From a virus, in IMG/VR virus record IMGVR_UViG_3300045988_161192, positions 1 to 64,000 of that record: 64,000 nt of DNA. One strand, 5' to 3'. Both the position numbers and the translations under genes were made by a program. Shown piece after piece: positions 4,454-47,267 of the stretch (position 1 is the first letter of the stretch; each line of letters begins with the position of its first letter). The notes beneath the pieces are model-generated. The model did not search any database. It was given only the letters and a program-made list of their open reading frames with translations, and had not been told where the DNA came from.

Positions 4454-7366
4454 ATGGACGAAGAATTCAAAGTCAGATTTGTCGTTGACATGGGCGACAC
4501 TGAAAAACGTGTAAAGCGTTTGAAAAATGACTTTGTCTCAATAGAAAATAACGAAATCCACTTCAAGTCTAATATTGGAGACATCGATAAAAATGCAAAT
4601 TCAGTTTTTAAGAATTTGCGTTCAATGATGGAAGGCGTCAACAAAAATCCAATTTGGTCCAATGCCAAAAAGCAAGAGTATTTGAAATTCTTTAAAGGTA
4701 TGGAACAAGTTGCCAATAGAGCATTCCACAGCATGGAAGCAAAATATTCTCGATTTGCTCAAGAGATTTCAACTTGGGACGCTCAAAAGAATGCTTTACA
4801 AGTTGAACTTAATCTAAAAGATGGTCAAGCTGAAGAAATCAGACATCAGATAGACGAGGAAATGTCAAAACCAAGCCGTGTTGGTACATACGAAGATTTG
4901 GTCAAAATGCAAGCAGAATATAACAAACTAACCAATATGAAACTTCCTTACGAGAAAGCAGCTCAAGCTGCTAAGGAACGTGGAGATATGCCTGACTACG
5001 AGTCTTGGATAAGAGATTTGAAAAAGATTGACGAATACCAAAAGAAACTGATGGATGACATGGAGCATTTTCAGATTGGAAAATCTATTGGTGGTCCAGA
5101 CTATGATAAAATCGCTAGCCTTCGAGAAAAATATGATGAAATCCAAAAAGAGGCTGAAGAACTTGACAAAGAAATAACTAAAATGGGAAATAACCCGGCA
5201 ATGGAAAAGAAACGTCAAGAACTAGAAGCAATTAGAGTTGAATACGGTAGACTGATGGTTGACTTACAAGGAAATCCTTTGGATGACCAATTTAGGTCAC
5301 AATCACTACAATCTTTGAACCCACAAGTAGAGAATTTGAATAATGGACTAGATAGGTCTGGTCAAAAAATCAAGTGGAACACAAAGTTGACTGAAGCTTG
5401 GGGTAAAATGATGGGTCGTTTGAAGTCAAGGGTTATGTTTAGTATTGTTTCAATGCTTAACCCAATTCGACTAATTCGTCAAGCCTGGAGTGGCTTTTTA
5501 GAGCAAAACACTAAAACTAAAAATACTTTGAAAATGATAGGTCTAAACTTACAAAAAGTAATAGCTCCAGTTCTTCAGAAGATTGCTAATTTCATTTTCA
5601 AAATGGCTCAGTATGCAAACGTTTTAACCAAAGCTTGGTTCAATGTAGACCTATTTGACAAATCTGTTTTAAGTGCTGAGAAAACAGAAAAGAAAATCAA
5701 GAAACTTAATCAATTAACAGCCGGCTTTGATGAACTAAATGTTTTTAAAGAAGACGAAGATGACAGTGACAGTGGCAATGAAACACTGGACACAATGGAA
5801 TTACCTAAAGTTGATACCTCTGGACTTGAGAAATGGGCAACAGAAGGATTTGGAAAGAAAGTGGGAGACATCCTGAAATGGTCATTAGAACATCCACTTG
5901 AAACTGCTGGAATTCTTCTTGGAGCTAAGTTCTTGGGTGGACTTCTTGGAAAAGGAGTCGGAGCATTAGTCAAGAAAGGTATTTCGAAACTATTTGGAGG
6001 TAGCGCAGCTGCAGAAGGTGCTGCCGCTGGTGGAGGACTTCTTGGAAAAATCTTTGGAAAAACACTATATACTGGTATGAACGGAAAAGCTGTTACAGTT
6101 GGAAAATTACTTGGTGGTATAGCATTAACGGCTGGTGGAACAGCATTAGCTATTTCACAAGCAGCAGATGCTGGAAAGAACTGGCAAGATTTGACAACTG
6201 GAGCTAAACTTGGAAAAACCGCATTAGTTGGACTTGGTTCTGCAGCAGCTGGAGTTGGAGCTGTAATGCTTGGAGCATCTGGACCAGTTGGTTGGGCCGT
6301 TGCTGGTGGTGTGGCTCTTGCCTCATTTGCAGTAGGTATGTGGCAAGTCCAAGATGGAATAGACTCGGTCAAGAAAGAAACTGAAAAATTAACAGAAGCT
6401 AATCAGAATGCCGAAGTTGCTAATCAGAATTACATGATTTCAGTCCAGAATGCAGCTTCAACATTATCAGCTTTGGAACAAGCCGAACAAGCAACTGGTT
6501 TATCTGGAGCAGCATTAGACGAACAAGTTAGAAACGGTACATTGAATGTTGAAAACATGACATCTGCTCAGTTAGCTGTCTATAGTGCTTATTTACAAAA
6601 CGAAGAAGCTGTTAAGAAATTGAAAGAAGCAACTGAAGCCAAAAAAGAAGCTGACCATCAAGCAGTTCTTCAGTCATTGAAAGTTGAAGCAGCAAATGCT
6701 ATTGAGTCTAAGTCTTATGATACATTAAGAGAAAAAGTTGTGAAAGCTTGGGAAGAAGGTTCAATTAGTGCTCAAGAAGCGGGAGACATTCTTTCGAGAA
6801 CTTTAGCACATGCTGATGATGAAACACAAAGAACTTTTGGTCAGAGCATCCCTAAAGAAATGCAAGATGCTTTCAATCCCGACAAATATGAGTCTGGTTG
6901 GAGAAAATTCGGTACAAACTTTAAAAATGCAATGGAAGGAATTGGCAATTGGTTCAAAAAGAAATGGGATGGAATTAAGAGTTGGTGGAATGGTTTATGG
7001 GGTAAAAATCAAACTCCAGAACCTAATGCTCCATCTGGTCCAAACGGTGAAAGCTGGTCTGGAGCATCCTATGCAGTTGGTACAAATTATGTACCGAATG
7101 ACCAATTAGCTTTAGTTCACAAAGGAGAAGCAATTATTCCAGCGAAATATAACAACGATAAGACTTTTGGAAGCCACGATGCTTATTTAAGAAGTACATT
7201 AGATGCTATGAATTCTGAAATCGCTAGCCTTAGAAACCTAATCAACCAAGGTATTCCAGTGAGAGGAGAATTCGTACAAAGAGGTTCAGACCTTTATGCT
7301 ACAGTGGAGAAAGCTAAAAGCAAAAAAGGAAATCAACCTTTAAGCAATCCAGCTTATGCTAGATAG
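4454..7366 (+). CDS. tail tape measure protein
   Basis: 970 aa; coiled-coil N-terminal half and a Gly/Ala-rich hydrophobic central segment; follows the G/T chaperones. Confidence 0.8.
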   Translation: MDEEFKVRFVVDMGDTEKRVKRLKNDFVSIENNEIHFKSNIGDIDKNANSVFKNLRSMMEGVNKNPIWSNAKKQEYLKFFKGMEQVANRAFHSMEAKYSRFAQEISTWDAQKNALQVELNLKDGQAEEIRHQIDEEMSKPSRVGTYEDLVKMQAEYNKLTNMKLPYEKAAQAAKERGDMPDYESWIRDLKKIDEYQKKLMDDMEHFQIGKSIGGPDYDKIASLREKYDEIQKEAEELDKEITKMGNNPAMEKKRQELEAIRVEYGRLMVDLQGNPLDDQFRSQSLQSLNPQVENLNNGLDRSGQKIKWNTKLTEAWGKMMGRLKSRVMFSIVSMLNPIRLIRQAWSGFLEQNTKTKNTLKMIGLNLQKVIAPVLQKIANFIFKMAQYANVLTKAWFNVDLFDKSVLSAEKTEKKIKKLNQLTAGFDELNVFKEDEDDSDSGNETLDTMELPKVDTSGLEKWATEGFGKKVGDILKWSLEHPLETAGILLGAKFLGGLLGKGVGALVKKGISKLFGGSAAAEGAAAGGGLLGKIFGKTLYTGMNGKAVTVGKLLGGIALTAGGTALAISQAADAGKNWQDLTTGAKLGKTALVGLGSAAAGVGAVMLGASGPVGWAVAGGVALASFAVGMWQVQDGIDSVKKETEKLTEANQNAEVANQNYMISVQNAASTLSALEQAEQATGLSGAALDEQVRNGTLNVENMTSAQLAVYSAYLQNEEAVKKLKEATEAKKEADHQAVLQSLKVEAANAIESKSYDTLREKVVKAWEEGSISAQEAGDILSRTLAHADDETQRTFGQSIPKEMQDAFNPDKYESGWRKFGTNFKNAMEGIGNWFKKKWDGIKSWWNGLWGKNQTPEPNAPSGPNGESWSGASYAVGTNYVPNDQLALVHKGEAIIPAKYNNDKTFGSHDAYLRSTLDAMNSEIASLRNLINQGIPVRGEFVQRGSDLYATVEKAKSKKGNQPLSNPAYAR

Positions 7367-7819: not shown

Positions 7820-9670
7820 ATGGCCTTAGAACAAAAATATCTGAATGTTACAACAAGAGCAGAAGGTTATTTAGACATCTTAATGTATATTCCAGACGAA
7901 GGAATTACAATTAGTTCAGTGAGTTGTGATGATGTTCTAAGCTATTCCAATATTAACTCTATAACTAACATCAAAAATTACAGTACTCAGACTTTAGCAA
8001 CTTTGGAAGAGAATCTTTGGGTACTAGATGGTTCATTTATCAACCCTACACAGGGAAGAACATATAACGGTTATGTTAGTAATTCGATGTCTGACGAAAA
8101 CGGTGATTTCGAGACTAATCCGAAAATTAGACTTGAATTAACGTCTAGTTCAGACGTCGAATATTTTTCTGTAACCTTGAACCCATCAGTTAGAACAGCT
8201 TATCCTAAGAATCTCAAAGTTACTTTTTACGATACTAACAGAACAGTTGTTAAAACAATGACCAAAAACCTTGAAGAGACAGATGGTGTTGACAATCCAG
8301 ACAGAGCTAATCTGCCTAATGTCATCTATGATGTTGATGCTAGTGGAGTAAAATATGTGGAAATAGAATTCATTGGAACGTTAGTCGGTCACAGAAGAGC
8401 TAGACTTTCGACAATAATGTTTGGTCGAATTTTAACTCTAACCCAAGATGAAATCTTGAGCTCAGACTATTTGGACACATGCTCATACGTTCCAGACAGT
8501 ATACCTTCACGTACATTCAGTTTTGATTTGGAAAATTATGATGGAAGATACAACATAGACAATCCTGAAAATGCATTGCTCACTTTGGATAGCACAACTA
8601 GAGTTTTGATTAGAAATGGTTATAACGTTTATGGTTATACCGAGGACCAGAATGAACACTATATCGACAACCCAGACGAAGTCGTTCAGATAGAGTGGGA
8701 TGACTGGAAAGAACTTCGATTGTTAGATGTTTCAACAAGTTCCGAAAATACATGCACCATGCAATGTGGTTCAATTTTGGATGCAATGACAGATGTTTAT
8801 ACTCAAGAAAGATTTGAACCTAATCGTTTAGTTGGAACAATAGTTGGGAAATTATTGGATTTTTTAGGAATGGATAGAAATATTGTAGTCTTTAGTTCAG
8901 ATGACAATGGGGTTGGTTATGACCAATACACAATCAATACTCCATTACCAGAACTTCCGGTTAGAGAACTTCTTCAACTTTTAGCTTTCTCAGTCGGAGC
9001 AACATTACTAATCAAAGACGATGGAACTATAAAATTTGCTAACTTGAATATTTTAGACGGTTCGACCTTTACGAACCATCACAGTTTTAGTTATAAAGAT
9101 TTTGCTTCAGTTCCAGCAGCTGAACAGTTAGAAGCAACTTCGAAGGTCTCTCTTCCAAAATACAATGCTACAGTTGAAAGTGCTGAGACTGATATTTCAA
9201 CCGTTGCTGTTTCAACGTATGAAGTGGAAGTTAGTTACCCAGAATGTGTTCCAACAACTGCTGTCGATAAAGAAACCGGTTTAGACACGGGAATAGATGG
9301 TGAATTATTCTGCCGTAAAGGTTATTTGGATGTAACACTGGGAAGTCAGATTTCAAGAGAAATCGTTATCAAGGGTCACAAGATAGATGTTCTTCAGACC
9401 CAAGACAGAACAGTTACAAAAGACACATTGATTATTGATACCCAACTGATGGCATCAGACCCAAACAATGTTATTAAGAACAAATATAAACAGTGGTACT
9501 CGAAGAAATTTAAGTACACAATGAATACCAGAGGAGAACCATTAGTAGATGCTGGTGATTGGGCAGTTATTCAATCGCCTTTCAGTGAAAGACTGAATTG
9601 CTATGTCCTTAAAAACCACATCAAGTTTGATGGAGCTTGGTCTGGAGATATGGAGGTGATAGCATTATGA
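7820..9670 (+). CDS. distal tail / baseplate hub protein (Dit-like, enlarged)
   Basis: 616 aa; the position TMP -> this gene -> large tip protein matches the siphovirus Dit-Tal order. Confidence 0.4.
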   Translation: MALEQKYLNVTTRAEGYLDILMYIPDEGITISSVSCDDVLSYSNINSITNIKNYSTQTLATLEENLWVLDGSFINPTQGRTYNGYVSNSMSDENGDFETNPKIRLELTSSSDVEYFSVTLNPSVRTAYPKNLKVTFYDTNRTVVKTMTKNLEETDGVDNPDRANLPNVIYDVDASGVKYVEIEFIGTLVGHRRARLSTIMFGRILTLTQDEILSSDYLDTCSYVPDSIPSRTFSFDLENYDGRYNIDNPENALLTLDSTTRVLIRNGYNVYGYTEDQNEHYIDNPDEVVQIEWDDWKELRLLDVSTSSENTCTMQCGSILDAMTDVYTQERFEPNRLVGTIVGKLLDFLGMDRNIVVFSSDDNGVGYDQYTINTPLPELPVRELLQLLAFSVGATLLIKDDGTIKFANLNILDGSTFTNHHSFSYKDFASVPAAEQLEATSKVSLPKYNATVESAETDISTVAVSTYEVEVSYPECVPTTAVDKETGLDTGIDGELFCRKGYLDVTLGSQISREIVIKGHKIDVLQTQDRTVTKDTLIIDTQLMASDPNNVIKNKYKQWYSKKFKYTMNTRGEPLVDAGDWAVIQSPFSERLNCYVLKNHIKFDGAWSGDMEVIAL

Positions 9671-12600
9671 GTTATACAGTTGAGTGGATTGAACCAATTT
9701 ACAATAGAAGTTATGGTGACATTCAAGCAGTTACAGATGACCCATATTTGGAAAATGCCATTGGTGCTTATAATGCTGTCGACATCAACCGTATTGAGAA
9801 TGACACCCAATATGTGATGGAATATATGTTAGACAGAAGAATTATCAGAAGTGTACCAGAAGGGTTTTCAACTTCTCGTGGATGGGAACATGATGACATT
9901 GTCACCAAAACAGATGTCAGTCGAATTATTGGAAATGTTATAATTCTGATGGAACTTTCAAACCCTGAAATCCAAGGAGATTTGGAACCTCTCTCACCTT
10001 CGGCACAAATCACATATCGTGTGGCAAACGCTATTGAAAAAAATCTAGAAATTATGAAAAATCAACCAGACTTACCTGTCCAAAGGTTTTGGTTGGAATT
10101 AGAACATGGTATAATACAAGAATATAACACTAATGCTGGCTGGATTGCTGAAAATGAAGTAGTCACAATTCGTGGAGTACCTTATGGAGAATACGCCCAA
10201 TTTATGAACTTTACTGGTTGGTCTGGTTCTGCTGAAGATTTACTTTGTTTAGCTAATCCATTAGCTCAGACAACTACTTTGACAATGCCATTTAGAAACG
10301 TCAGCCTAACAGCAACTTTTGAAACTCGAATACCCAGAACCTTGATTTTGAATTCTGGACACATTTGTGAAAGTGGAATTGTTGGTCCAACTGGTCCAAG
10401 CCAGATAACTTGTTATGCTGGAGACAGACTATTGATTGTTGCTGAAGTCGCTGCTTCTGGAAAGGCATTTTGGAATTGGACTGGAACCCAAGAGGCTATA
10501 GACAATCTGACTGGTGGAGAAGAACCTTCTTCTTCTTGGTTAGTTATGCCAGATTGTGATGTTGAACTAACAGCCCATTACATTAACGCTGGAGAACATA
10601 GTGTTACAATCTATCAACCAACTGGAAATGAAGTTAACTGGTACGACTATGATGAGTATGTTTCGATTTATCCTGCTAGTAGAGGAAACAAATGGGTATT
10701 TGATTATTGGAGTGGAAGTACCCAATATTTGGAGGACATACATGACAGTGGGGCTAGCTTTAAAATGCCAGATGTCAATTTGACATTTACTCCACATTAC
10801 AGATACAACTATTCGTATAACACCGTTAGAGTAACTAATGGTACAGTTGATGGACAAACTGAAATCACTGGAGCAATGGAAACTTCTAATCACACCATTA
10901 CAGCTGGTCCAGCACCAGAAGGACAAGGATTTTATAATTGGACTCTAGAAGGAGTTGGTTCTTTTGCTAATCAAGGAGATTCTCCAACAACTTTCACTGT
11001 TGGTGATGGAAATGCTATTTTGACAGCAACCTATAAAAATCTTCACAGACTAACCGTTACAAATTTGGATAATAGTGGAAGTCCAACAATTTATGATGTT
11101 GTAGAAGGAAAAACTAAAACACTTTCTACTAATTCAAGAGTTGGAGATTATAAGTTCAATGGATGGTACGAAGGAGAAACTCGTCTTTCAACTCTAACCA
11201 GTTATACAATAACGATGGGAACTGGAGATAGAACGATAGAGGCCAGATATGATTACACTCCAACTTATACTGTGACTTTGGTTAACCGAAATAACGGTGG
11301 AGCAACTACAACATATTCTGTTTTCTCTGGTGATTATTGGAATTCTTCAACCACAGAAGAAGTCGGAGATTACTTATTCGTTAGATGGTTGAAAGATAAT
11401 TCTCAAGTTAGCACATCACTTTCTTATGGCTTTTATGTTTATGGAGACACTACTATTACAGTTGAATATAGACCAAAAGAAACCTATCATCTGACTGTCA
11501 ACAATGGTTCTGGCTCGGGAGATTATAAAGAAAGACAATCTGTTACGATTACTGCTGATGAGGGAGATTTTTCTGACTGGTCATATTCTGGACTATACAA
11601 CATTGGTTCAACAACAAGTCGAACAACAACTGTAAAATTGGGAAGAGGAGATGGAACTGTTACAGCAAATTATAATTTGAGAAGCATCCAAGTCATAACG
11701 AATTCTGGTACAAACAATTATAGCATTAGACAAGGTAATACCCAAAACATTAACGCCAACCCAGCACCAAGTACTTATGAATTCGACCAATGGGAAGTCG
11801 TTTCTGGAGATGCCACATTTGGAAATTATCTATCAGCTTCAACATACGTTAGGGCTGGTTCAGAAAACTCAGTAGTTAGAGCAACATATAAACCAATCCC
11901 ATATTTTACTATCACGGTCCAAAATGGTTATGTCCAAGATGGTCAGAATTGGGTAACATCTGGAACGTTCCTTAGAAATTCGAATGTCCCAATAAAGATG
12001 ATAGAAGCTCCAGAAGGTTATCAATTCTTGCAATGGGAAATTTTACAAGGAAATCAAAATGCTGTCTACCAACCAAGAGCTGAAACAACTTATGTCCAAA
12101 ATTTATTGGAAAATGTTATTGTTAGAGCAACATATTATATTCCAGACCCAGAAATTCAATACACTTTGACTATCACTCGAAAAGATGGCTCAGTCGAAAC
12201 TAGTCAACATTCAGTTGGTGAGAGAGTAACGATTTATGCTGATTTCCCAGACGAAGGTTATGAATTTAGGAGATGGACTGGAGATACACAATATGTCAAC
12301 GACAGATACAGTGAAACGGCCATTGTCAATATGCCAGCAAGAAATATCGAATTAGCTATGCAATATAAGCAAGAGGGAGCTACTGAAAAATTCCACGTTG
12401 TTTTGAGAAATGGAGAATTATTAGTTAGTAGTGAGGAAGACCCAGAGACACATGAAACCATCGAGACTTGGTCAGACAATGGTGAATTCGAAGAAGGTTC
12501 AGTTGTTCCAATCAGAGCAATCAATATTCCACACGGTTATTCTTTCTATCGATGGTGGAACCCTGATGACGATGGAAAATCGATGAGCACAGTCACTGAA

Positions 12601-13386
12601 TTAGAAAATCCTAACACTACATTAACAGTAGAGGATTTTGACATCACCTTGGAAAGAGCAATTTCTGAGAATGACAAATACACTTTGACATTGAGGGATG
12701 GACAACGTGGTGGAACATACTATGAAAACGACGAAGTTCCTCTATATTTCTCAAAAACTGACACAGACACAATTCATTATAATTGGAAAAGATGGATGGG
12801 TCCAGATATTAACTGGGCAATTGCCAATCTGAGAGTTAAAACTCAATCTGGAACTAAAGCTTTTGACCCATTTGACGATGGAGACTATGGAGACGATGCT
12901 CAGATAATTTTAATGCCAACTAGACATTTGGAATTGTGGGCGACTTATGATGAAGCTTATAGATTAAGACTAATCAATGGTACTGCTGATGGAAGTTCAG
13001 AAGTTTTCAATCCCGAAGACACTGAAATCACAATCGTTGCTAACCCAGCACCACAAGGAAAGGTCTTTTGGAAGTGGTCTGGTGATACAGACTATGTCGA
13101 AGCCATCTTTGATAGCACAACTAAAGTTTATATGCCAGCAACACCAATTAACCTAACTGCTCTTTATGAGGATGCTTCAGACCCAAGTGACATTGGTTAC
13201 ACTTCAGAAGATTTATATGGTGAAACACAAGTCGATACTTCTGACATAACCGTAATTTCTGGAACTATTGGATTTGGATTTATCTTAACAGATGTCAAAG
13301 GTCACATGTATATGGTCAGTGAGTTGGTTGACCAAACAGCAACTATTGTTAGACTAACTCAAAAACAATCTGGAGGTGATGTATAA
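9667..13386 (+). CDS. tail-associated / receptor-binding protein with about 11 Listeria-Bacteroides (Flg_new-like) repeats
   Basis: ATG at 9667 after GGAGGTG; 1239 aa; reiterated ~85-aa modules each carrying a GYxFxxW-type motif (YKFNGWYEG, YEFDQWEV, YQFLQWEI, YEFRRWTG, YSFYRWWN, VFWKWSG). Confidence 0.55.
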   Translation: MSYTVEWIEPIYNRSYGDIQAVTDDPYLENAIGAYNAVDINRIENDTQYVMEYMLDRRIIRSVPEGFSTSRGWEHDDIVTKTDVSRIIGNVIILMELSNPEIQGDLEPLSPSAQITYRVANAIEKNLEIMKNQPDLPVQRFWLELEHGIIQEYNTNAGWIAENEVVTIRGVPYGEYAQFMNFTGWSGSAEDLLCLANPLAQTTTLTMPFRNVSLTATFETRIPRTLILNSGHICESGIVGPTGPSQITCYAGDRLLIVAEVAASGKAFWNWTGTQEAIDNLTGGEEPSSSWLVMPDCDVELTAHYINAGEHSVTIYQPTGNEVNWYDYDEYVSIYPASRGNKWVFDYWSGSTQYLEDIHDSGASFKMPDVNLTFTPHYRYNYSYNTVRVTNGTVDGQTEITGAMETSNHTITAGPAPEGQGFYNWTLEGVGSFANQGDSPTTFTVGDGNAILTATYKNLHRLTVTNLDNSGSPTIYDVVEGKTKTLSTNSRVGDYKFNGWYEGETRLSTLTSYTITMGTGDRTIEARYDYTPTYTVTLVNRNNGGATTTYSVFSGDYWNSSTTEEVGDYLFVRWLKDNSQVSTSLSYGFYVYGDTTITVEYRPKETYHLTVNNGSGSGDYKERQSVTITADEGDFSDWSYSGLYNIGSTTSRTTTVKLGRGDGTVTANYNLRSIQVITNSGTNNYSIRQGNTQNINANPAPSTYEFDQWEVVSGDATFGNYLSASTYVRAGSENSVVRATYKPIPYFTITVQNGYVQDGQNWVTSGTFLRNSNVPIKMIEAPEGYQFLQWEILQGNQNAVYQPRAETTYVQNLLENVIVRATYYIPDPEIQYTLTITRKDGSVETSQHSVGERVTIYADFPDEGYEFRRWTGDTQYVNDRYSETAIVNMPARNIELAMQYKQEGATEKFHVVLRNGELLVSSEEDPETHETIETWSDNGEFEEGSVVPIRAINIPHGYSFYRWWNPDDDGKSMSTVTELENPNTTLTVEDFDITLERAISENDKYTLTLRDGQRGGTYYENDEVPLYFSKTDTDTIHYNWKRWMGPDINWAIANLRVKTQSGTKAFDPFDDGDYGDDAQIILMPTRHLELWATYDEAYRLRLINGTADGSSEVFNPEDTEITIVANPAPQGKVFWKWSGDTDYVEAIFDSTTKVYMPATPINLTALYEDASDPSDIGYTSEDLYGETQVDTSDITVISGTIGFGFILTDVKGHMYMVSELVDQTATIVRLTQKQSGGDV

Positions 13387-13678: not shown

Positions 13679-13707
13679 TTTACATTTCACAGAAAATGTG
13701 ATATAAT
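13679..13707 (+). promoter_or_regulatory. promoter CTGTTTACA-17-TGtgaTATAAT (family copy)
   Basis: TTTACA at 13679-13684, 17-nt spacer, extended -10 TGTGATATAAT ending at 13707. Confidence 0.5.
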
Positions 13708-13731: not shown

Positions 13732-15351
13732 ATGGCAAAGGAAGACGAAGATGGAGTTTGGAGAACCGTTAGTGGTCGTAGAATTTTCATAAGTAATGGC
13801 GAAAGCTTAATCGAAGCAATGAAAAAATCGGGAAAATTCAAAAAGAAAATGCATGGACCTAATGACCCAAAAATCAAAAAAGCAAATAAGCCTTATGAAA
13901 AAGAAGATGCCAAAAGAGCAAAACAATATGAAAGAGACCAAGAATTAAGAAAAACTATTCAGAATAAAAAAGAACTAAGAAAAAGACTAGAGCAAATGAA
14001 AAAGAGTGGAAAATTCAAAGATGTTCTTGGTGAACCAAGAGATACGAAATTTGGTGACAAAAAAATTAGAAACGACAAAGAATTTGAAACAACCAGAGAT
14101 GCTATGAATGCTATCGCTAAACAACTCAATGAGACTAAGGACCCAAAACAAAAAGCCACATTGGAAAGAGTTTTAAAGAATTATACTAAAAATCTAAAAG
14201 AATATCAACAGAAGTCAAAGGAAGCTTTCAAAAAGAAATACAGTGAAAGTTTTGACAATTGGAAAAAAGCTAACCCTCAAGCTACAGACGATGAGATTAT
14301 TGGAATTCTTAAAGCTAAACAATATAATGGAGAATTGGGTGGGAACACCAAAAATACTATTCCGAACCGTTTCAAGGATGGCTTCAAAATCCAAAACAGC
14401 AAATACTCTGACGAAAACAAAATGACTTTAGTTGAAGATGGTTCTGGAGTTAGACTAATCTATGATGGAAAAGACACTGGAACAGTTTTGAGAAATGATT
14501 TGTCAGACAGTGAAATCAGTTCACTTAGAAATGCTGGAAAGATACAAAATATGTCTGAGTATTTGGGTGAAAAATATTCTCTAAACGACAAGCAATTGAG
14601 AACATTACACAACCATTTGGAAGCCAACATCAAAACTTGGAGAGAACAAGGAATGAGTAATCAACAAATTTTAGACATGGTCAGTGATAGACAAGAAATC
14701 GCTGGAGACGATGGTCTTTATAATTTGAAAGGAATTGACATGAACAGCAAAAAGACTGAGGTCCTTAACGAATATCAGAGTTACATCCAAAACAAAATCA
14801 GCACTAAGACCAAGAAGGACTATGACGCTGGTCTTGAGAAAATCAACAAAATCTCAACCGATGGAACTTATGATTTAGAAACTGGTTCTAGCAAAGACTA
14901 TTCTGATGGCTACCAAGTTACTTTCTCGATGACAGATATGGATTTTGACGATAAGACTTATCAAGACTTAGTCGAAAAATTCAAAACACATGACCACGGT
15001 ACAGTAGATGCTGGGAAATATGAAGGCTATCCTGAGATTAGTTTTAACGTTACAGATTTAAAGACAGCTGCTAAGTTAGCAACAAAATATAATCAGATTA
15101 GTATTTGGGATTGGAAGAATGGAAAGATTATTCCAACCAAAGGAACTGGAGCTTATGCTGATTATAAACCAGTTACAACTCAAGATATTTCAAAATCAGT
15201 AGCAAGAACTCGAGGTCTTCAAAACCGAATTCTAAACTATGAAGACGAAATCAAAACTCTCAAGAGAAAGAGTAGCCTGACCTTTATGGATAAACAAAAA
15301 CTTATGAAACTCCAAAGGGAAAAAGAGAAGTTGGAAAATCAACTAAAATAG
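13732..15351 (+). CDS. lysine-rich protein sharing an N-terminal ~35-aa module with the ADP-ribosyltransferase protein (candidate virion internal/ejected protein)
   Basis: RBS AAAGGAG then ATG at 13732; N-terminus EDGVWRTVSGRRIFISNGESLIEAMKKSGKF matches the 50505 ORF (EDGVWRTVKGRRIFIRNGEDLETAMRNSGKF); the rest is highly charged. Confidence 0.5.
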   Translation: MAKEDEDGVWRTVSGRRIFISNGESLIEAMKKSGKFKKKMHGPNDPKIKKANKPYEKEDAKRAKQYERDQELRKTIQNKKELRKRLEQMKKSGKFKDVLGEPRDTKFGDKKIRNDKEFETTRDAMNAIAKQLNETKDPKQKATLERVLKNYTKNLKEYQQKSKEAFKKKYSESFDNWKKANPQATDDEIIGILKAKQYNGELGGNTKNTIPNRFKDGFKIQNSKYSDENKMTLVEDGSGVRLIYDGKDTGTVLRNDLSDSEISSLRNAGKIQNMSEYLGEKYSLNDKQLRTLHNHLEANIKTWREQGMSNQQILDMVSDRQEIAGDDGLYNLKGIDMNSKKTEVLNEYQSYIQNKISTKTKKDYDAGLEKINKISTDGTYDLETGSSKDYSDGYQVTFSMTDMDFDDKTYQDLVEKFKTHDHGTVDAGKYEGYPEISFNVTDLKTAAKLATKYNQISIWDWKNGKIIPTKGTGAYADYKPVTTQDISKSVARTRGLQNRILNYEDEIKTLKRKSSLTFMDKQKLMKLQREKEKLENQLK

Positions 15352-15366: not shown

Positions 15367-15564
15367 ATGGGAAAAGTTATAATGGACGATGTCGATATTA
15401 TCAACATAGCTCAATTATGGGCAACAGTTGCAACAGATGACCCAGACCAAAAGAAAATAATGGCTCGTATGAGTGATAGGGCTGTAGATTGGTATATTCA
15501 CAACTTGGTTCCAACTGTGGGTCGACCAAAAGTGAAAGCTCAGTTTGAAGAACTTAGAAAATAA
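15367..15564 (+). CDS. hypothetical protein
   Basis: 65 aa; RBS AAAGGAGAAAG. Confidence 0.35.
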   Translation: MGKVIMDDVDIINIAQLWATVATDDPDQKKIMARMSDRAVDWYIHNLVPTVGRPKVKAQFEELRK

Positions 15565-15577
15565 TTTCAAAATAATT

Positions 15578-15602
15578 GGAAGTAATTCATTTACTTCCTT
15601 TT
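15578..15602 (+). terminator. rho-independent terminator
   Basis: perfect hairpin GGAAGTAA-ttca-TTTACTTCC followed by TTTT. Confidence 0.5.
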
Positions 15603-15618
15603 AATTTAGTGATATAAT
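15590..15618 (+). promoter_or_regulatory. promoter TTTACT-17-TATAAT overlapping the 3' arm of the terminator
   Basis: TTTACT 15590-15595, 17-nt spacer ending in TGA, TATAAT 15613-15618. Confidence 0.45.
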
Positions 15619-16237: not shown

Positions 16238-16266
16238 TTTACTTTTTTCTCAAAATGTGGTATAAT
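16238..16266 (+). promoter_or_regulatory. promoter aaaCTGTTTACT-17-TGgTATAAT (family copy)
   Basis: TTTACT 16238-16243, 17-nt spacer, TATAAT 16261-16266 with upstream TG. Confidence 0.5.
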
Positions 16267-16655: not shown

Positions 16656-16907
16656 ATGCAAGTTACTTTAGCAAATGGAAAAAAGTATGAAGTCTACAAA
16701 GTACAAAGGGCACTGTTCAGTTCAGATGGGACAACTCCATATTTGATGTACAATGAAGCTCGAGACGAACATTTAGAGACAGCCGACCCAAGACTATGTC
16801 AAGAGCTTTATAAATTGTGCAAAAAACCAAAATTCTTTGTAGCAGGAAAATTAGAGAAAGGCTTAATTCGAATAGAGCAAGTCTTGAAAGGAGAGGACTG
16901 GTTTTAA
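16656..16907 (+). CDS. hypothetical protein
   Basis: ATG at 16656 after AAAGGAGAAA; its stop overlaps the helicase start (TAATG). Confidence 0.35.
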   Translation: MQVTLANGKKYEVYKVQRALFSSDGTTPYLMYNEARDEHLETADPRLCQELYKLCKKPKFFVAGKLEKGLIRIEQVLKGEDWF

Positions 16908-18205
16908 TGACAAATACACCTTATGATTACCAAGAACAGATTGCTCAGAAAATTGTTACTTCTGGAGACATTTCAGTTGCTCTGTTTATGGACATGGGAA
17001 CTGGAAAAACGATTACAAGTTTAAGAGTTTTCGAATTATTGCATGAGCAAGATAAAGCCAACAAAATTTTAGTGGTATGTCTAAAGAACAAGATTGAGGA
17101 CTGGCAAAAAGAGATTGACATGGAATTCGAGAATAAGGACTTTGACTATGAAGTTATAAACTTCGAAAGTATTTGGAGACCAAAAAGAGCTGACTTTTAT
17201 AAAAACTATGTTGATGAGAAAACTCTAATCATTGTTGACGAAAGTCATAAGATAAAATCACACAAGACAAAAATTACAAAATTTATGTTAAGCTTGTACC
17301 ATCAGACAAAATTGAAATTGATACTTACAGGTACCCCACAATCTGAGGAGTACATTGATTATTACCCACAAATGAAATTTATCAATGCTCCAGACTATGA
17401 TTTGACTTACAAAAAATTTGACCAGACTTACTTAATCAAAAGTTTAGAGATGCAAGGTGGTCATTATTATTTTACAATTTTGGACTATCGACACAAGGAT
17501 GTTCTCAGAAAAGGAATTATGGACAAGGCATACTATCACAAATACTCAAGTGAGTATGACAAACCAATAGAAATCTTTGTTGACATCGAACATTCTCGTG
17601 AAGCCAAGAAATTCCAAAAAGACAGAGTTTGGAAAGACCCAGACACAGACCGAGGCAATGATGTTATCGCTGACAACCAATTAGGTCTTAGAACTTATAT
17701 GAGACAAAGTTGTTCTGGATTTATCAGAGACTTTGACATTGAAAGTCCTAAGGAAGATTGGCTAGAAGATTTTCTTGAAATCACTCCTTATAGGATTGTT
17801 ATATTTGCTAACTTCATAAGAGAAATTGAAAAAATTAAAACCATTTGTAGAAAAATGAACCGACCGGTTGGAGTATATTATGGAGCTGAAAAAGATTTAG
17901 CACCTTTCAAAGAAAATGAAAATGGTATAGCTATAGTAAATTACAAATCTGGAGCAGTTGGAATAAATGACTTATGTATTGCTAATATTGGAATATTTTA
18001 TAGCCCTCCCGATGGAGACTTCATATTATATGCACAAGCCAAAGCCAGATTGGACCGAATTGGTCAAACAAAACAACCAGTGTTTTATTTTCTTAATACT
18101 AAGGGTTCAGTCGAAAAACCAATTTACGACAATCTTAAAAAGGGTCAGGATTTCGACGATAAGATGTTTGCTGAGTGGTTGTTAACTCAGTCAAAAAAAG
18201 TTTAA
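16907..18205 (+). CDS. SNF2/DEAD-like superfamily-2 helicase
   Basis: Q-motif YDYQEQ, Walker A MGTGKT, DESH box (VDESHKIK), helicase C-terminal motifs; ATG at 16907 after GGAGAGGA. Confidence 0.6.
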   Translation: MTNTPYDYQEQIAQKIVTSGDISVALFMDMGTGKTITSLRVFELLHEQDKANKILVVCLKNKIEDWQKEIDMEFENKDFDYEVINFESIWRPKRADFYKNYVDEKTLIIVDESHKIKSHKTKITKFMLSLYHQTKLKLILTGTPQSEEYIDYYPQMKFINAPDYDLTYKKFDQTYLIKSLEMQGGHYYFTILDYRHKDVLRKGIMDKAYYHKYSSEYDKPIEIFVDIEHSREAKKFQKDRVWKDPDTDRGNDVIADNQLGLRTYMRQSCSGFIRDFDIESPKEDWLEDFLEITPYRIVIFANFIREIEKIKTICRKMNRPVGVYYGAEKDLAPFKENENGIAIVNYKSGAVGINDLCIANIGIFYSPPDGDFILYAQAKARLDRIGQTKQPVFYFLNTKGSVEKPIYDNLKKGQDFDDKMFAEWLLTQSKKV

Positions 18206-45466: not shown

Positions 45467-46024
45467 ATGTCAAAGGCAAGAAAAGCTCCTAAGAAGGAAG
45501 TTAGCAATGATACCAGTACTACTGATGAGAAAATCCCTAAGACTCCATCAGCAATGACTACTCTCGAGAAAGTCAAGTACTATTTTGAAGAACTGGGCTT
45601 TACTAATGAGAACCCACATGATTTGGAATTAGTAGCTGAGCTGCATGAGAGATGGCTAAGAAAAGACAACTCTGAATTATCTAAAGAACTCTTTGTATTA
45701 TCACAAGACCCCGATGTTATTGCGGTACTAAAGCGATGTCGTGATACAAATGAGCCACAACGCCGTATGACTAAAGTAGACCTCCAGATATTATTGGAGA
45801 AAATTGCCAGAGGTGAAGTAGAGAGAAAAGACTATGTTGGCAAGGATGCTGATTTAGTTTATCTTACTCCCAATTTTAGTGAAAGACTTAATGCAATCAA
45901 GATGCTAATGGTTGAAGCTGAGAACGAAGGAGATGAGAGAATTTACTTCATAGATGACATTGAGGCCAAGTATGTTGAAATGATGGAGAAAGAGGGTGGA
46001 GCAAATGATACTGAAGAGACTTAG
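45467..46024 (+). CDS. putative terminase small subunit
   Basis: 185 aa, basic N-terminus, immediately upstream of and overlapping TerL; positional call only. Confidence 0.35.
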   Translation: MSKARKAPKKEVSNDTSTTDEKIPKTPSAMTTLEKVKYYFEELGFTNENPHDLELVAELHERWLRKDNSELSKELFVLSQDPDVIAVLKRCRDTNEPQRRMTKVDLQILLEKIARGEVERKDYVGKDADLVYLTPNFSERLNAIKMLMVEAENEGDERIYFIDDIEAKYVEMMEKEGGANDTEET

Positions 46025-47267
46025 TGAAATTCACCTACCAGTATATTGGAAAATGCATTTGCCCAGTTTTAAATGCTCTCGTCGTTATCTCCGTGGTGGA
46101 AGATATTCTGGAAAATCTACTGAAGTTGCAAGGTCACATATTGAGGGAATGCTCAAAGATGAAACTAAAACAAAGTCATGCATAGCTTTTAGAAAATTTG
46201 GTAATACTTTACAAGGTTCAGTCTTCAACGAGTATGTCAATGCTATCTATGATTTAGGAGTAGAAAATGAGTTTGAGATGGTTTATTCACCATTACAAAT
46301 CAGAAGAAAAAATTCTCATCAAGTTATAATGTTCTCTATGCTTAACCAGCCAGATGATTTCAGAAAAATAAAATCCATCAAGTTAGTTAAGTCTTATTTT
46401 GCCTATATTTGGTTCGAAGAGGCTGATGAGTTCACTGACCCAAAAGCTATTCGTCAAGTTTTACTTTCATTATTCAGAAATGGTAGTGAGTTCGAAGTTA
46501 CTTATACTTTCAATACTCCATTTAGCCCAGAGCATCCATTGAACGTTGAGTGGGGAACCAGAGACAAATACTATTATCAACACACAACTGTTTATGATTT
46601 ACCTAAAAATATCATACCGGCTGAGATATGGGAAGAGATTGAGGACATGAAAAAATATCGTCCTAAAGAGTATGAGCATACCATACTTGGAAAACCCGGT
46701 GACCCAGATGCTATCATTTACCCTAATGTTAGTAGATATACTTATGACCCAGATTATGTCAAAGCATTTGATTTGATACTAAGAGGAATAGACTTTGGAT
46801 TTGCACCGGACCCAACAGCTTACATTGATATGTACTACGATAGCACTCACAGGGATTTGTATATTTTGAACGAGGTATATGAACAAAGACTTACATCACC
46901 AGAAATTGCTGAGAGGGTTAGACAAAAATGGCATAGCTATGGACCAATTACTTGTGAAATTGACAAACGTGTTATTGAGGAATTGAACAACGCCGGTCTA
47001 TATTGTTTGGAGGCTAAGAAGGGTCCGAATTCACGTGAGCTTGGTACTAAGTGGTTGCAAGAACTTAATCACATTTACATTGACCCAGCCAGAACACCTA
47101 ATGCTTGGAGAGAATTCACAACTGCTGAATATGCAAGAGACAAATATGGAAATGTTACAACTAAAATACCAGATGGCAATGACCACTTGAGAGATGCTGC
47201 TAGATATGCTACAGAAGATTATTGGAACACTTCTCAATTAACTGTTGGAGATAGGAGGCTATTTTAA
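45996..47267 (+). CDS. terminase large subunit
   Basis: Walker A GGRYSGKST near the N-terminus; 423 aa; followed by the portal gene. Confidence 0.75.
   Translation: MEQMILKRLSEIHLPVYWKMHLPSFKCSRRYLRGGRYSGKSTEVARSHIEGMLKDETKTKSCIAFRKFGNTLQGSVFNEYVNAIYDLGVENEFEMVYSPLQIRRKNSHQVIMFSMLNQPDDFRKIKSIKLVKSYFAYIWFEEADEFTDPKAIRQVLLSLFRNGSEFEVTYTFNTPFSPEHPLNVEWGTRDKYYYQHTTVYDLPKNIIPAEIWEEIEDMKKYRPKEYEHTILGKPGDPDAIIYPNVSRYTYDPDYVKAFDLILRGIDFGFAPDPTAYIDMYYDSTHRDLYILNEVYEQRLTSPEIAERVRQKWHSYGPITCEIDKRVIEELNNAGLYCLEAKKGPNSRELGTKWLQELNHIYIDPARTPNAWREFTTAEYARDKYGNVTTKIPDGNDHLRDAARYATEDYWNTSQLTVGDRRLF

Follow-up and report, generated by a model that had tools for sequence, protein, structure and literature searches.

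A 64,000-nt stretch of viral DNA from a gut phage (IMG/VR record IMGVR_UViG_3300045988_161192, positions 1-64,000; hereafter the window), with a GC content of 35% and all major open reading frames (ORFs) on the + strand, carries two genes whose products, proteins A and B, start with the same short segment and then diverge. This segment, here called the GVWRT module, precedes a conserved C-terminal domain (the WDW domain) in protein A and an ADP-ribosyltransferase (ART) domain in protein B. We propose that it is a small autonomous domain that serves as a common N-terminal adaptor on polymorphic phage effectors. The elements concerned are the following, in window coordinates:

13732-13848, + strand: module copy 1, residues 1-39 of protein A, MAKEDEDGVWRTVSGRRIFISNGESLIEAMKKSGKFKKK; 80 bits against the module profile
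13732-15351, + strand: protein A, 539 aa; begins with the module and a Lys-rich linker, followed by a shuffled helical middle, the conserved C-terminal domain and a coiled-coil tail
14785-15183, + strand: WDW domain, the conserved C-terminal cargo of protein A, residues 352-484
50505-50615, + strand: module copy 2, residues 1-37 of protein B, MEEEDGVWRTVKGRRIFIRNGEDLETAMRNSGKFNKS; 79 bits against the module profile
50505-52301, + strand: protein B, 598 aa; begins with the module and a linker, continues with two conserved, uncharacterized regions and ends in the ART
51837-52208, + strand: ART domain of the R-S-E type, residues ~445-568 of protein B; PF03496

BLASTP comparison of proteins A and B returned a single significant segment (E = 2e-14), aligning residues 4-68 of A with residues 2-65 of B at 51% identity, all remaining segments having E > 1; from DGVW onwards, 24 of the 33 aligned residues (73%) are identical. 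An earlier note, made from the sequence alone, had described a common N-terminus of about 35 residues followed by divergence, and the comparison bears this out. At 14 of the 24 identical residues the two genes use differing synonymous codons, and DNA identity is only ~75%, indicating that selection operates at the protein level, that is, purifying selection, and that the similarity is old. Given this synonymous divergence, neither a duplication nor a gene conversion linking the copies can be recent. When all six frames of the window were searched with the module profile and filters off, exactly these two copies came up (80 and 79 bits), the third-best match scoring 7.7 bits (E = 0.15). Within protein A, residues 88-97 (MKKSGKFKD; window positions 13993-14022) partly repeat the tail of the module, and residues 231-270, modeled as strands and a helix ending in AGKIQN, may be a degenerate module.

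The module consists of an acidic N-terminus, a beta-hairpin (GVWRTVxGRRIFI) and a helix (SLxxAMKKSGKF), followed by a disordered Lys-rich linker. In the AF2 model of the protein A module (pLDDT ~72), the hairpin spans residues 8-13/16-21 and the helix residues 26-32, while residues 37-59 form the disordered linker. In 16 proteins whose cargoes are unrelated, 18 module positions are invariant, and the conserved residues include Arg and Lys. The combination of a hairpin carrying G-R-x-I-x-I with a following helix presumably resembles the looped-hinge hairpin domains of the SpoVT/AbrB type, but no match to the Pfam MazE_antitoxin/AbrB models was obtained at E ≤ 1. The module alone matches no Pfam family at the same threshold and nothing in PHROG, and no account of it turned up when the literature was searched for its motif strings or for a packaging tag. 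We thus regard the module as undescribed in Pfam, PHROGs, PDB and the searchable literature, although it may correspond to an LPD domain of Iyer et al. that was not taken up into Pfam.

The motif singled out in the earlier note starts many more ORFs. A 38-position profile of the module, searched against 1.84 billion cluster representatives (50% identity), gave matches in at least 1234 protein clusters with a threshold of E ≤ 1e-3, of which 947 reach E ≤ 1e-10. Among 188 proteins, comprising the listed profile matches and the homologues of the two window proteins, the first module copy begins no more than 30 residues from the N-terminus in 180, with a typical span of residues 2-45. In IMG/VR, 181 loci with the module were found; in all of the 80 that were kept it is N-terminal. 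The 86 module proteins encoded there group into 55 clusters at 80% identity; by cargo, they make up 27 families. As in the window, several phages possess 2 or 3 module genes with different cargo, located either in tandem (loci L069, L073 and L009) or apart (L033, L054 and L060). Matches to genomes come from gut and rumen metagenome-assembled genomes of Bacilli, Clostridia, Erysipelotrichaceae, Christensenellaceae and Butyricicoccaceae. Cultured phages were searched by tblastn with the module, two internal-copy variants, a WITVDGKHIPI variant and a WDW protein; one candidate, ORF042 of Pseudomonas phage 73 (E ~1), lies in an early-gene region and was judged a chance match. A megablast search of cultured phages with the locus gave no match.

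The cargo attached to the module is highly diverse, with 202 module proteins falling into 40 C-terminal families. Domains recognized by Pfam include ADPrib_exo_Tox (65 bits), ART (30 bits), ART-PolyVal (79 bits), PBECR3 (44 bits) and Zeta toxin (48 bits), with PBECR1 at 24 bits remaining below its cut-off; most cargo families have no recognizable enzymatic domain. Judged from these matches, the recognized cargo is the vocabulary of injected effectors, namely, toxin or anti-defence domains. Effector cargo is hence found on a segment which, as the earlier note had cautioned, might have been an ordinary minor-capsid domain devoid of it. The C-termini of many module proteins are conserved as well, each belonging to one of a few tail types (YKGTxEYLxxTTNMSGxEILELLKKIxxDKK, AYxxYKKEHPxSKMTFxxF and SRQQLATLLVENQIDRGIIKPESKQRQI; proteins P0019, P0044, P0043, P0045 and P0020-P0029), so that the variable cargo is bracketed by conserved ends.

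Giant proteins (750-2221 aa) contain 2 to 4 copies of the module at internal positions, next to the Pfam domains MuF, Acb1, Zeta toxin, ART-PolyVal, ADPrib_exo_Tox and Hint. The MuF-fused forms are P0046-P0049 and P0172: the module follows the MuF domain by ~50 aa in P0048, P0172 and P0047 and directly precedes ART domains in P0049 and P0172. Given this fused MuF/module/ART architecture, the order seen in the window, a MuF gene followed by a module-ART gene, corresponds to its split form. Five internal copies are preceded by EH and then AEE(D/E)GVWRT, mimicking the N-terminus of the solo proteins, M-AEEDGVWRT. The EH-AEE(D/E) string, frequent ahead of the internal copies (P0047 residues 1302-1346, P0048 252-296, P0049 752-796 and P0172 1109-1153), may be a processing site.

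The genes surrounding the module were compared in 49 dereplicated IMG/VR loci. In 35 of the 49 loci, a gene no more than 4 positions downstream of the module gene encodes a member of one ~165-aa protein family, to which Pfam-confirmed scaffolds belong; in 25 loci this gene is the immediate neighbour. Among the genes downstream, the Pfam scan yielded 29 matches to Phage_scaffold, 6 to DUF4355 and ~30 to capsid families, and that of upstream genes yielded SPP1 portal (7), Phage_min_cap2 (7) and Mu_F (3). Two loci, L018 and L030, show a fibre-adjacent context like that of protein A.

Protein B lies in a head module of this kind, which contains the following additional genes:

45996-47267, + strand: terminase, upstream of the portal gene
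48085-49641, + strand: portal protein of the SPP1 gp6 type; Pfam PF05133, E = 6.7e-36
49493-50497, + strand: MuF/SPP1 gp7-like minor head protein; start uncertain, the ORF as listed overlapping the portal gene
52285-52464, + strand: conserved, acidic ORF of 59 aa that overlaps the stop codon of the ART gene; may encode an immunity protein or chaperone

The gene order is thus terminase, portal, a weak MuF/minor-head match and then module-ART. The product of 49493-50497 matches Pfam Phage_Mu_F at E = 8.9e-4, which is below the cut-off, and PHROG 115 (minor head protein) at E = 7e-6. As listed, its ORF overlaps that of the portal by 149 nt; the true MuF start may lie elsewhere, or a frameshift or fusion may be involved. 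The ATG of protein B (50505) is located 7 nt past the stop of the MuF-like gene, with no promoter-like site between the two. In the related locus L108, the MuF gene occupies the same position and the MuF to module-ART synteny is maintained.

Full-length scans of proteins A and B against Pfam and PHROG assigned no family to either, and the ART surfaced only in the scan of sub-segments: the C-terminal 156 aa of protein B, scanned alone, match PF03496 (ADPrib_exo_Tox) with E = 2.5e-9 and 37.2 bits (cut-off 23.4), and its homologues (P0030-P0042) score 31-33 bits against the same family. Residues R471/R472 (YRR), S491-T492-S493 and Q555-H-E557 are invariant or nearly so in 10 sequences; the R, Ser-Thr-Ser and Gln/Glu-x-Glu motifs are presumably the catalytic triad characteristic of the family. 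Searching PDB sequences with the ART-family profile gave spurious matches only. These matches confirm, at the level of sequence, that protein B ends in a true ART domain, for which NAD-dependent activity is predicted. The ART domain that the earlier note had recognized in this ORF is therefore upheld, as are the gene contexts that it gave, protein A following the tail-fibre genes and protein B following the gp7-like minor head gene.

Protein A is encoded far from this module. Upstream of it are a tape-measure gene (4454-7366), genes for a 616-aa protein and a 1249-aa repeat-rich fibre-like protein (9637-13386), and an 88-aa ORF. An AAAGGAG ribosome-binding site precedes the ATG at 13732, rendering a longer ORF from 13714 less likely. 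The gene is accompanied by 3 further elements:

13679-13707, + strand: promoter-like site, TTTACA-17-(TG)TATAAT, matching the consensus at 11/12 positions with an extended -10; consensus match only
15367-15564, + strand: conserved 65-aa ORF; candidate cognate partner or immunity protein
15578-15598, + strand: terminator-like hairpin with T-run, closing the two-gene unit of protein A and the 65-aa ORF

The site at 13679-13707 is the best promoter-like site of the region on the + strand, one site on the - strand also matching at 11/12 positions. By motif and hairpin, ORF 13732 and its 65-aa neighbour have the appearance of an independent, moron-like unit. The promoter-like motif, in the form TTTAC(A/T)-17-TGnTATAAT, recurs at 13679-13707, 15590-15618, 16238-16266 and 52470-52498; one copy precedes a tRNA-Pro/tRNA-Met pair (52590-52842) and another directly precedes ORF 13732.

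Each of the two module genes in the window is followed by a small ORF (<150 aa; 59 and 65 aa), whereas in 25 of the 49 related loci the scaffold gene is found there instead. Both small ORFs are better conserved than the preceding module protein: the 59-aa product is 62% identical to its counterpart in L108, as against 42% for the ART homologue, and the 65-aa product is 85% identical to the one in the same position of L110, where the module protein is only 58% identical. The 59-aa and 65-aa proteins are unrelated to each other and hence cannot be a shared partner of the module; from their position and conservation, they are candidate cognate immunity proteins or chaperones.

All homologues of protein A (P0001-P0018) start with the module, their middle segments being inserted or deleted, and even close homologues differ by whole inserted or deleted segments. 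Sub-segment Pfam scans of protein A gave no family, and a Foldseek search of the PDB with the full-length model yielded nothing (best E = 0.47). The WDW domain is predicted to be a compact alpha/beta fold (pLDDT 88.7). Its homologues form 114 clusters and are mostly stand-alone proteins of 115-230 aa; in a phage of 102 kb, one of them is encoded between replication genes on one side and portal/scaffold genes on the other. On this sequence distribution, it is a separate mobile domain. At least 4 short N-terminal leaders interchange on WDW homologues (P0202, P0211, P0206, P0277, P0266, P0197 and P0210). Besides the GVWRT module, these are divergent hairpin-helix variants of the WxTxxGxHIPI type (IQWITVDGKHIPIGAGQSKDEAV and SWVTIKGRHVFIKDGE), NPxHDxxGRF with Gly/Ser linkers, GNFGHKGRPGxxGGSG and (NLQFF)GGRGS, each of the last three motifs being followed by a Gly/Ser- or Lys-rich linker. 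NLQFF'G is the leader of the scaffold and capsid proteins of phage 80alpha, cleaved by the host Prp protease (PMC9405229). No Prp-type leader is present in the window.

Several known systems resemble the arrangement described here. In phage T4, the internal proteins IPI-III, a diverse set of injected defence or effector proteins, share only a short N-terminal capsid-targeting sequence (CTS), which directs them to the scaffolding core (PMC3012670). Likewise, the module is a conserved N-terminal element heading diverse effectors, and its gene is most often found beside the scaffold gene. However, the module is a predicted hairpin-helix of ~30 aa rather than a peptide of ~10 aa, and the phages that carry it are siphovirus-like and infect gut Bacillota. 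By eye, it also has no evident similarity to the CTS consensus, and the resemblance is one of proposed function only.

MuF fusions and ARTs encoded in head operons have been predicted to be packaged (PMC5512222, PMC5576092, PMC9503650). As in the MuF toxins of temperate Firmicutes phages (Jamet et al. 2017, PMC5576092), the toxin in the window, frequently an ART in that family, comes right after portal and MuF and is followed by a small ORF; gut Firmicutes hosts and polymorphic C-terminal domains are further common traits. Yet the toxin of the window is a separate gene headed by the module, which is not described in that work, rather than a MuF fusion, and only protein B occupies a position in the packaging module, protein A being located far from MuF, after the tail-fibre gene. 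Since Pfam detects no MuF domain in protein A or B, neither belongs to the MuF-toxin family.

The module proteins also share the vocabulary of the polyvalent proteins (Iyer et al. 2017, PMC5512222; 2022, PMC9503650), including ART, ART-PolyVal, Zeta toxin, PBECR, 2H/Acb1 and MuF, as well as a predicted delivery with the DNA. Moreover, the module occurs inside bona fide MuF polyvalent proteins, and the window genes lie among packaging and late genes. Some LPDs are also encoded as solo proteins beside structural genes (Iyer et al., PMC5512222; PMC9503650). Nevertheless, no Pfam LPD family matches the module, and neither its overwhelmingly N-terminal position on single-cargo proteins nor the presence of several paralogues per phage was described for those proteins. 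Protein B has one recognized enzymatic domain and protein A none, with relative P0041 adding further segments. Finally, the Prp leader of 80alpha is likewise a short N-terminal leader common to head proteins and serves as an alternative leader on WDW homologues, but it differs in sequence, is a host-protease site and is found on neither window protein (PMC9405229).

The reading towards which we lean, with modest confidence, is that the module docks effectors onto a component of the procapsid, leading to their encapsidation and entry with the DNA. The scaffold, as the most consistently linked neighbour, is a candidate dock; natural fusions of the module to MuF, a portal-associated head component, suggest the MuF minor head protein or the portal as others. 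Cargo would be docked while the procapsid assembles, so that separately encoded effectors would be encapsidated and then enter the next host with the DNA, the ART and the C-terminal domain of unknown function presumably acting in the newly infected cell. The order portal, MuF and module-ART would then be a split version of the MuF-toxin or polyvalent proteins, and the module a tag acting in trans, functionally analogous to the CTS of T4. In other lineages, other short leaders take its place, one of them typical of capsid and scaffold proteins. Somewhat short of even confidence, we extend this to a general scheme, in which the module is a portable capsid-loading tag of siphovirus-like gut Bacillota phages and the alternative leaders are lineage-specific equivalents, together forming a "leader code."

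Virion targeting of both proteins by a T4-like logic had already been suggested in the earlier note. What stands of this idea is the conserved leader on unrelated effector cargo in morphogenesis modules, extended by its occurrence in at least 1234 clusters, its fusions to MuF and its adjacency to scaffold genes; what does not is the closeness to T4, the module being a folded unit of ~30 aa, not a 10-aa peptide, with no sequence relation to the CTS. The loading of protein A into virions is likewise less secure, as its gene has its own sigma-70-like promoter and terminator, and the product need not be purely late and packaged. Indeed, this cassette is situated at the boundary of the early region and could be expressed early and never packaged, which is one of several points weighing against procapsid docking. 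The module is ~75% identical between phages whose capsid or scaffold proteins cannot be aligned, which is unexpected for a tag co-evolving with a fast-evolving partner and could mean that it binds DNA or a host factor. Several internal copies would be redundant for simple docking in proteins that contain MuF. In addition, the module profile found no relative among PDB sequences, so that no solved structure has the module, and tblastn found neither the module nor the WDW domain in the 50,697 cultured-phage genomes of INPHARED.

The strong conservation invites the explanation that the module, as a small basic hairpin-helix unit, works unpackaged in the host cytoplasm, where it would tether the various enzymes, made during infection, to a single conserved partner (e.g., nucleic acid, the ribosome, RNA polymerase or some other host factor). 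The contrast with the unalignable capsid and scaffold neighbours, the conserved Arg and Lys, and the host-type promoter and own terminator of the 13732 cassette would all be consistent with this. We nonetheless consider it unlikely: most module genes belong to head operons, where they immediately precede that of the scaffold; MuF proteins contain the module as a fusion; and there is no reason why cargoes as unlike one another as Zeta toxin, PBECR RNases, ARTs and Acb1 should use one common docking site in the host. A processing or boundary element, at which polyproteins would be cleaved or a protease or chaperone recruited and which would act as a pro-peptide in the solo proteins, appears rather less plausible still. 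It would account for the imitation of the solo N-terminus ahead of the five internal copies, polyvalent proteins have been predicted to be proteolytically processed (PMC5512222), and a Prp protease motif occurs among the other WDW leaders (PMC9405229); yet a cleavage site needs no folded unit of 30 residues with 18 invariant positions, and no prohead protease was identified in the window. Processing is, besides, compatible with targeting rather than exclusive of it, the T4 CTS being cleaved as well.

It is very improbable that the segment belongs, as an ordinary domain unconnected with effectors, to the structure of minor capsid or tail proteins. Its genes do belong to morphogenesis modules and most cargo families lack a recognizable enzymatic domain, but the cargo that is recognized comprises toxin or anti-defence domains, the fusions are with polyvalent effector proteins, and the cargo varies among close relatives in a way that structural proteins do not. 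Least credible of all is a role of the conserved 5' segment mainly as a recombination handle for swapping effector cassettes, the encoded peptide being functionless. The extreme shuffling of cargo and the location of the segment at the border between conserved and variable sequence are what such a handle would produce; however, with 14 of 24 codons differing, DNA at ~75% identity offers little substrate for homologous exchange, and the synonymous divergence, which shows conservation at the protein level, disfavours this explanation.

If procapsid docking is correct, a motif of 30 residues would mark the injected effector repertoire of many uncultured gut and rumen phages (>1000 clusters), and the module proteins, most of them with uncharacterized cargo, would become ranked candidates for new activities in anti-defence and host takeover. 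A tag of this kind would further account for the entry into capsids of effectors that lack a MuF or portal fusion, and would be a small handle by which foreign proteins could be put into phage particles, the role that the CTS has in T4. The "leader code," in turn, would identify the injected proteome of uncultured phages from sequence alone. Should the module not be a tag, it would still be a highly conserved domain, so far undescribed, that connects toxin cargo with head modules.

Other genes near the module deserve mention. Unexpectedly, in at least 18 of ~50 related phages, genes for glycosyl-, methyl- and NTP-transferases are inserted in the head module, between portal/MuF and the module gene (e.g., L004, 7478-9942; L005, 593-3107), and this block may be responsible for glycosylation of virion proteins or DNA. 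In the window, a DHH phosphoesterase gene (53152-54093; PHROG 4771, E = 1.6e-30) is located just past the tRNA pair downstream of the ART cassette. Downstream of protein A, a gene for an SNF2-type helicase (16817-18205) has a 730-aa counterpart in L110 (10013-12205) that contains an intein and an HNH endonuclease.

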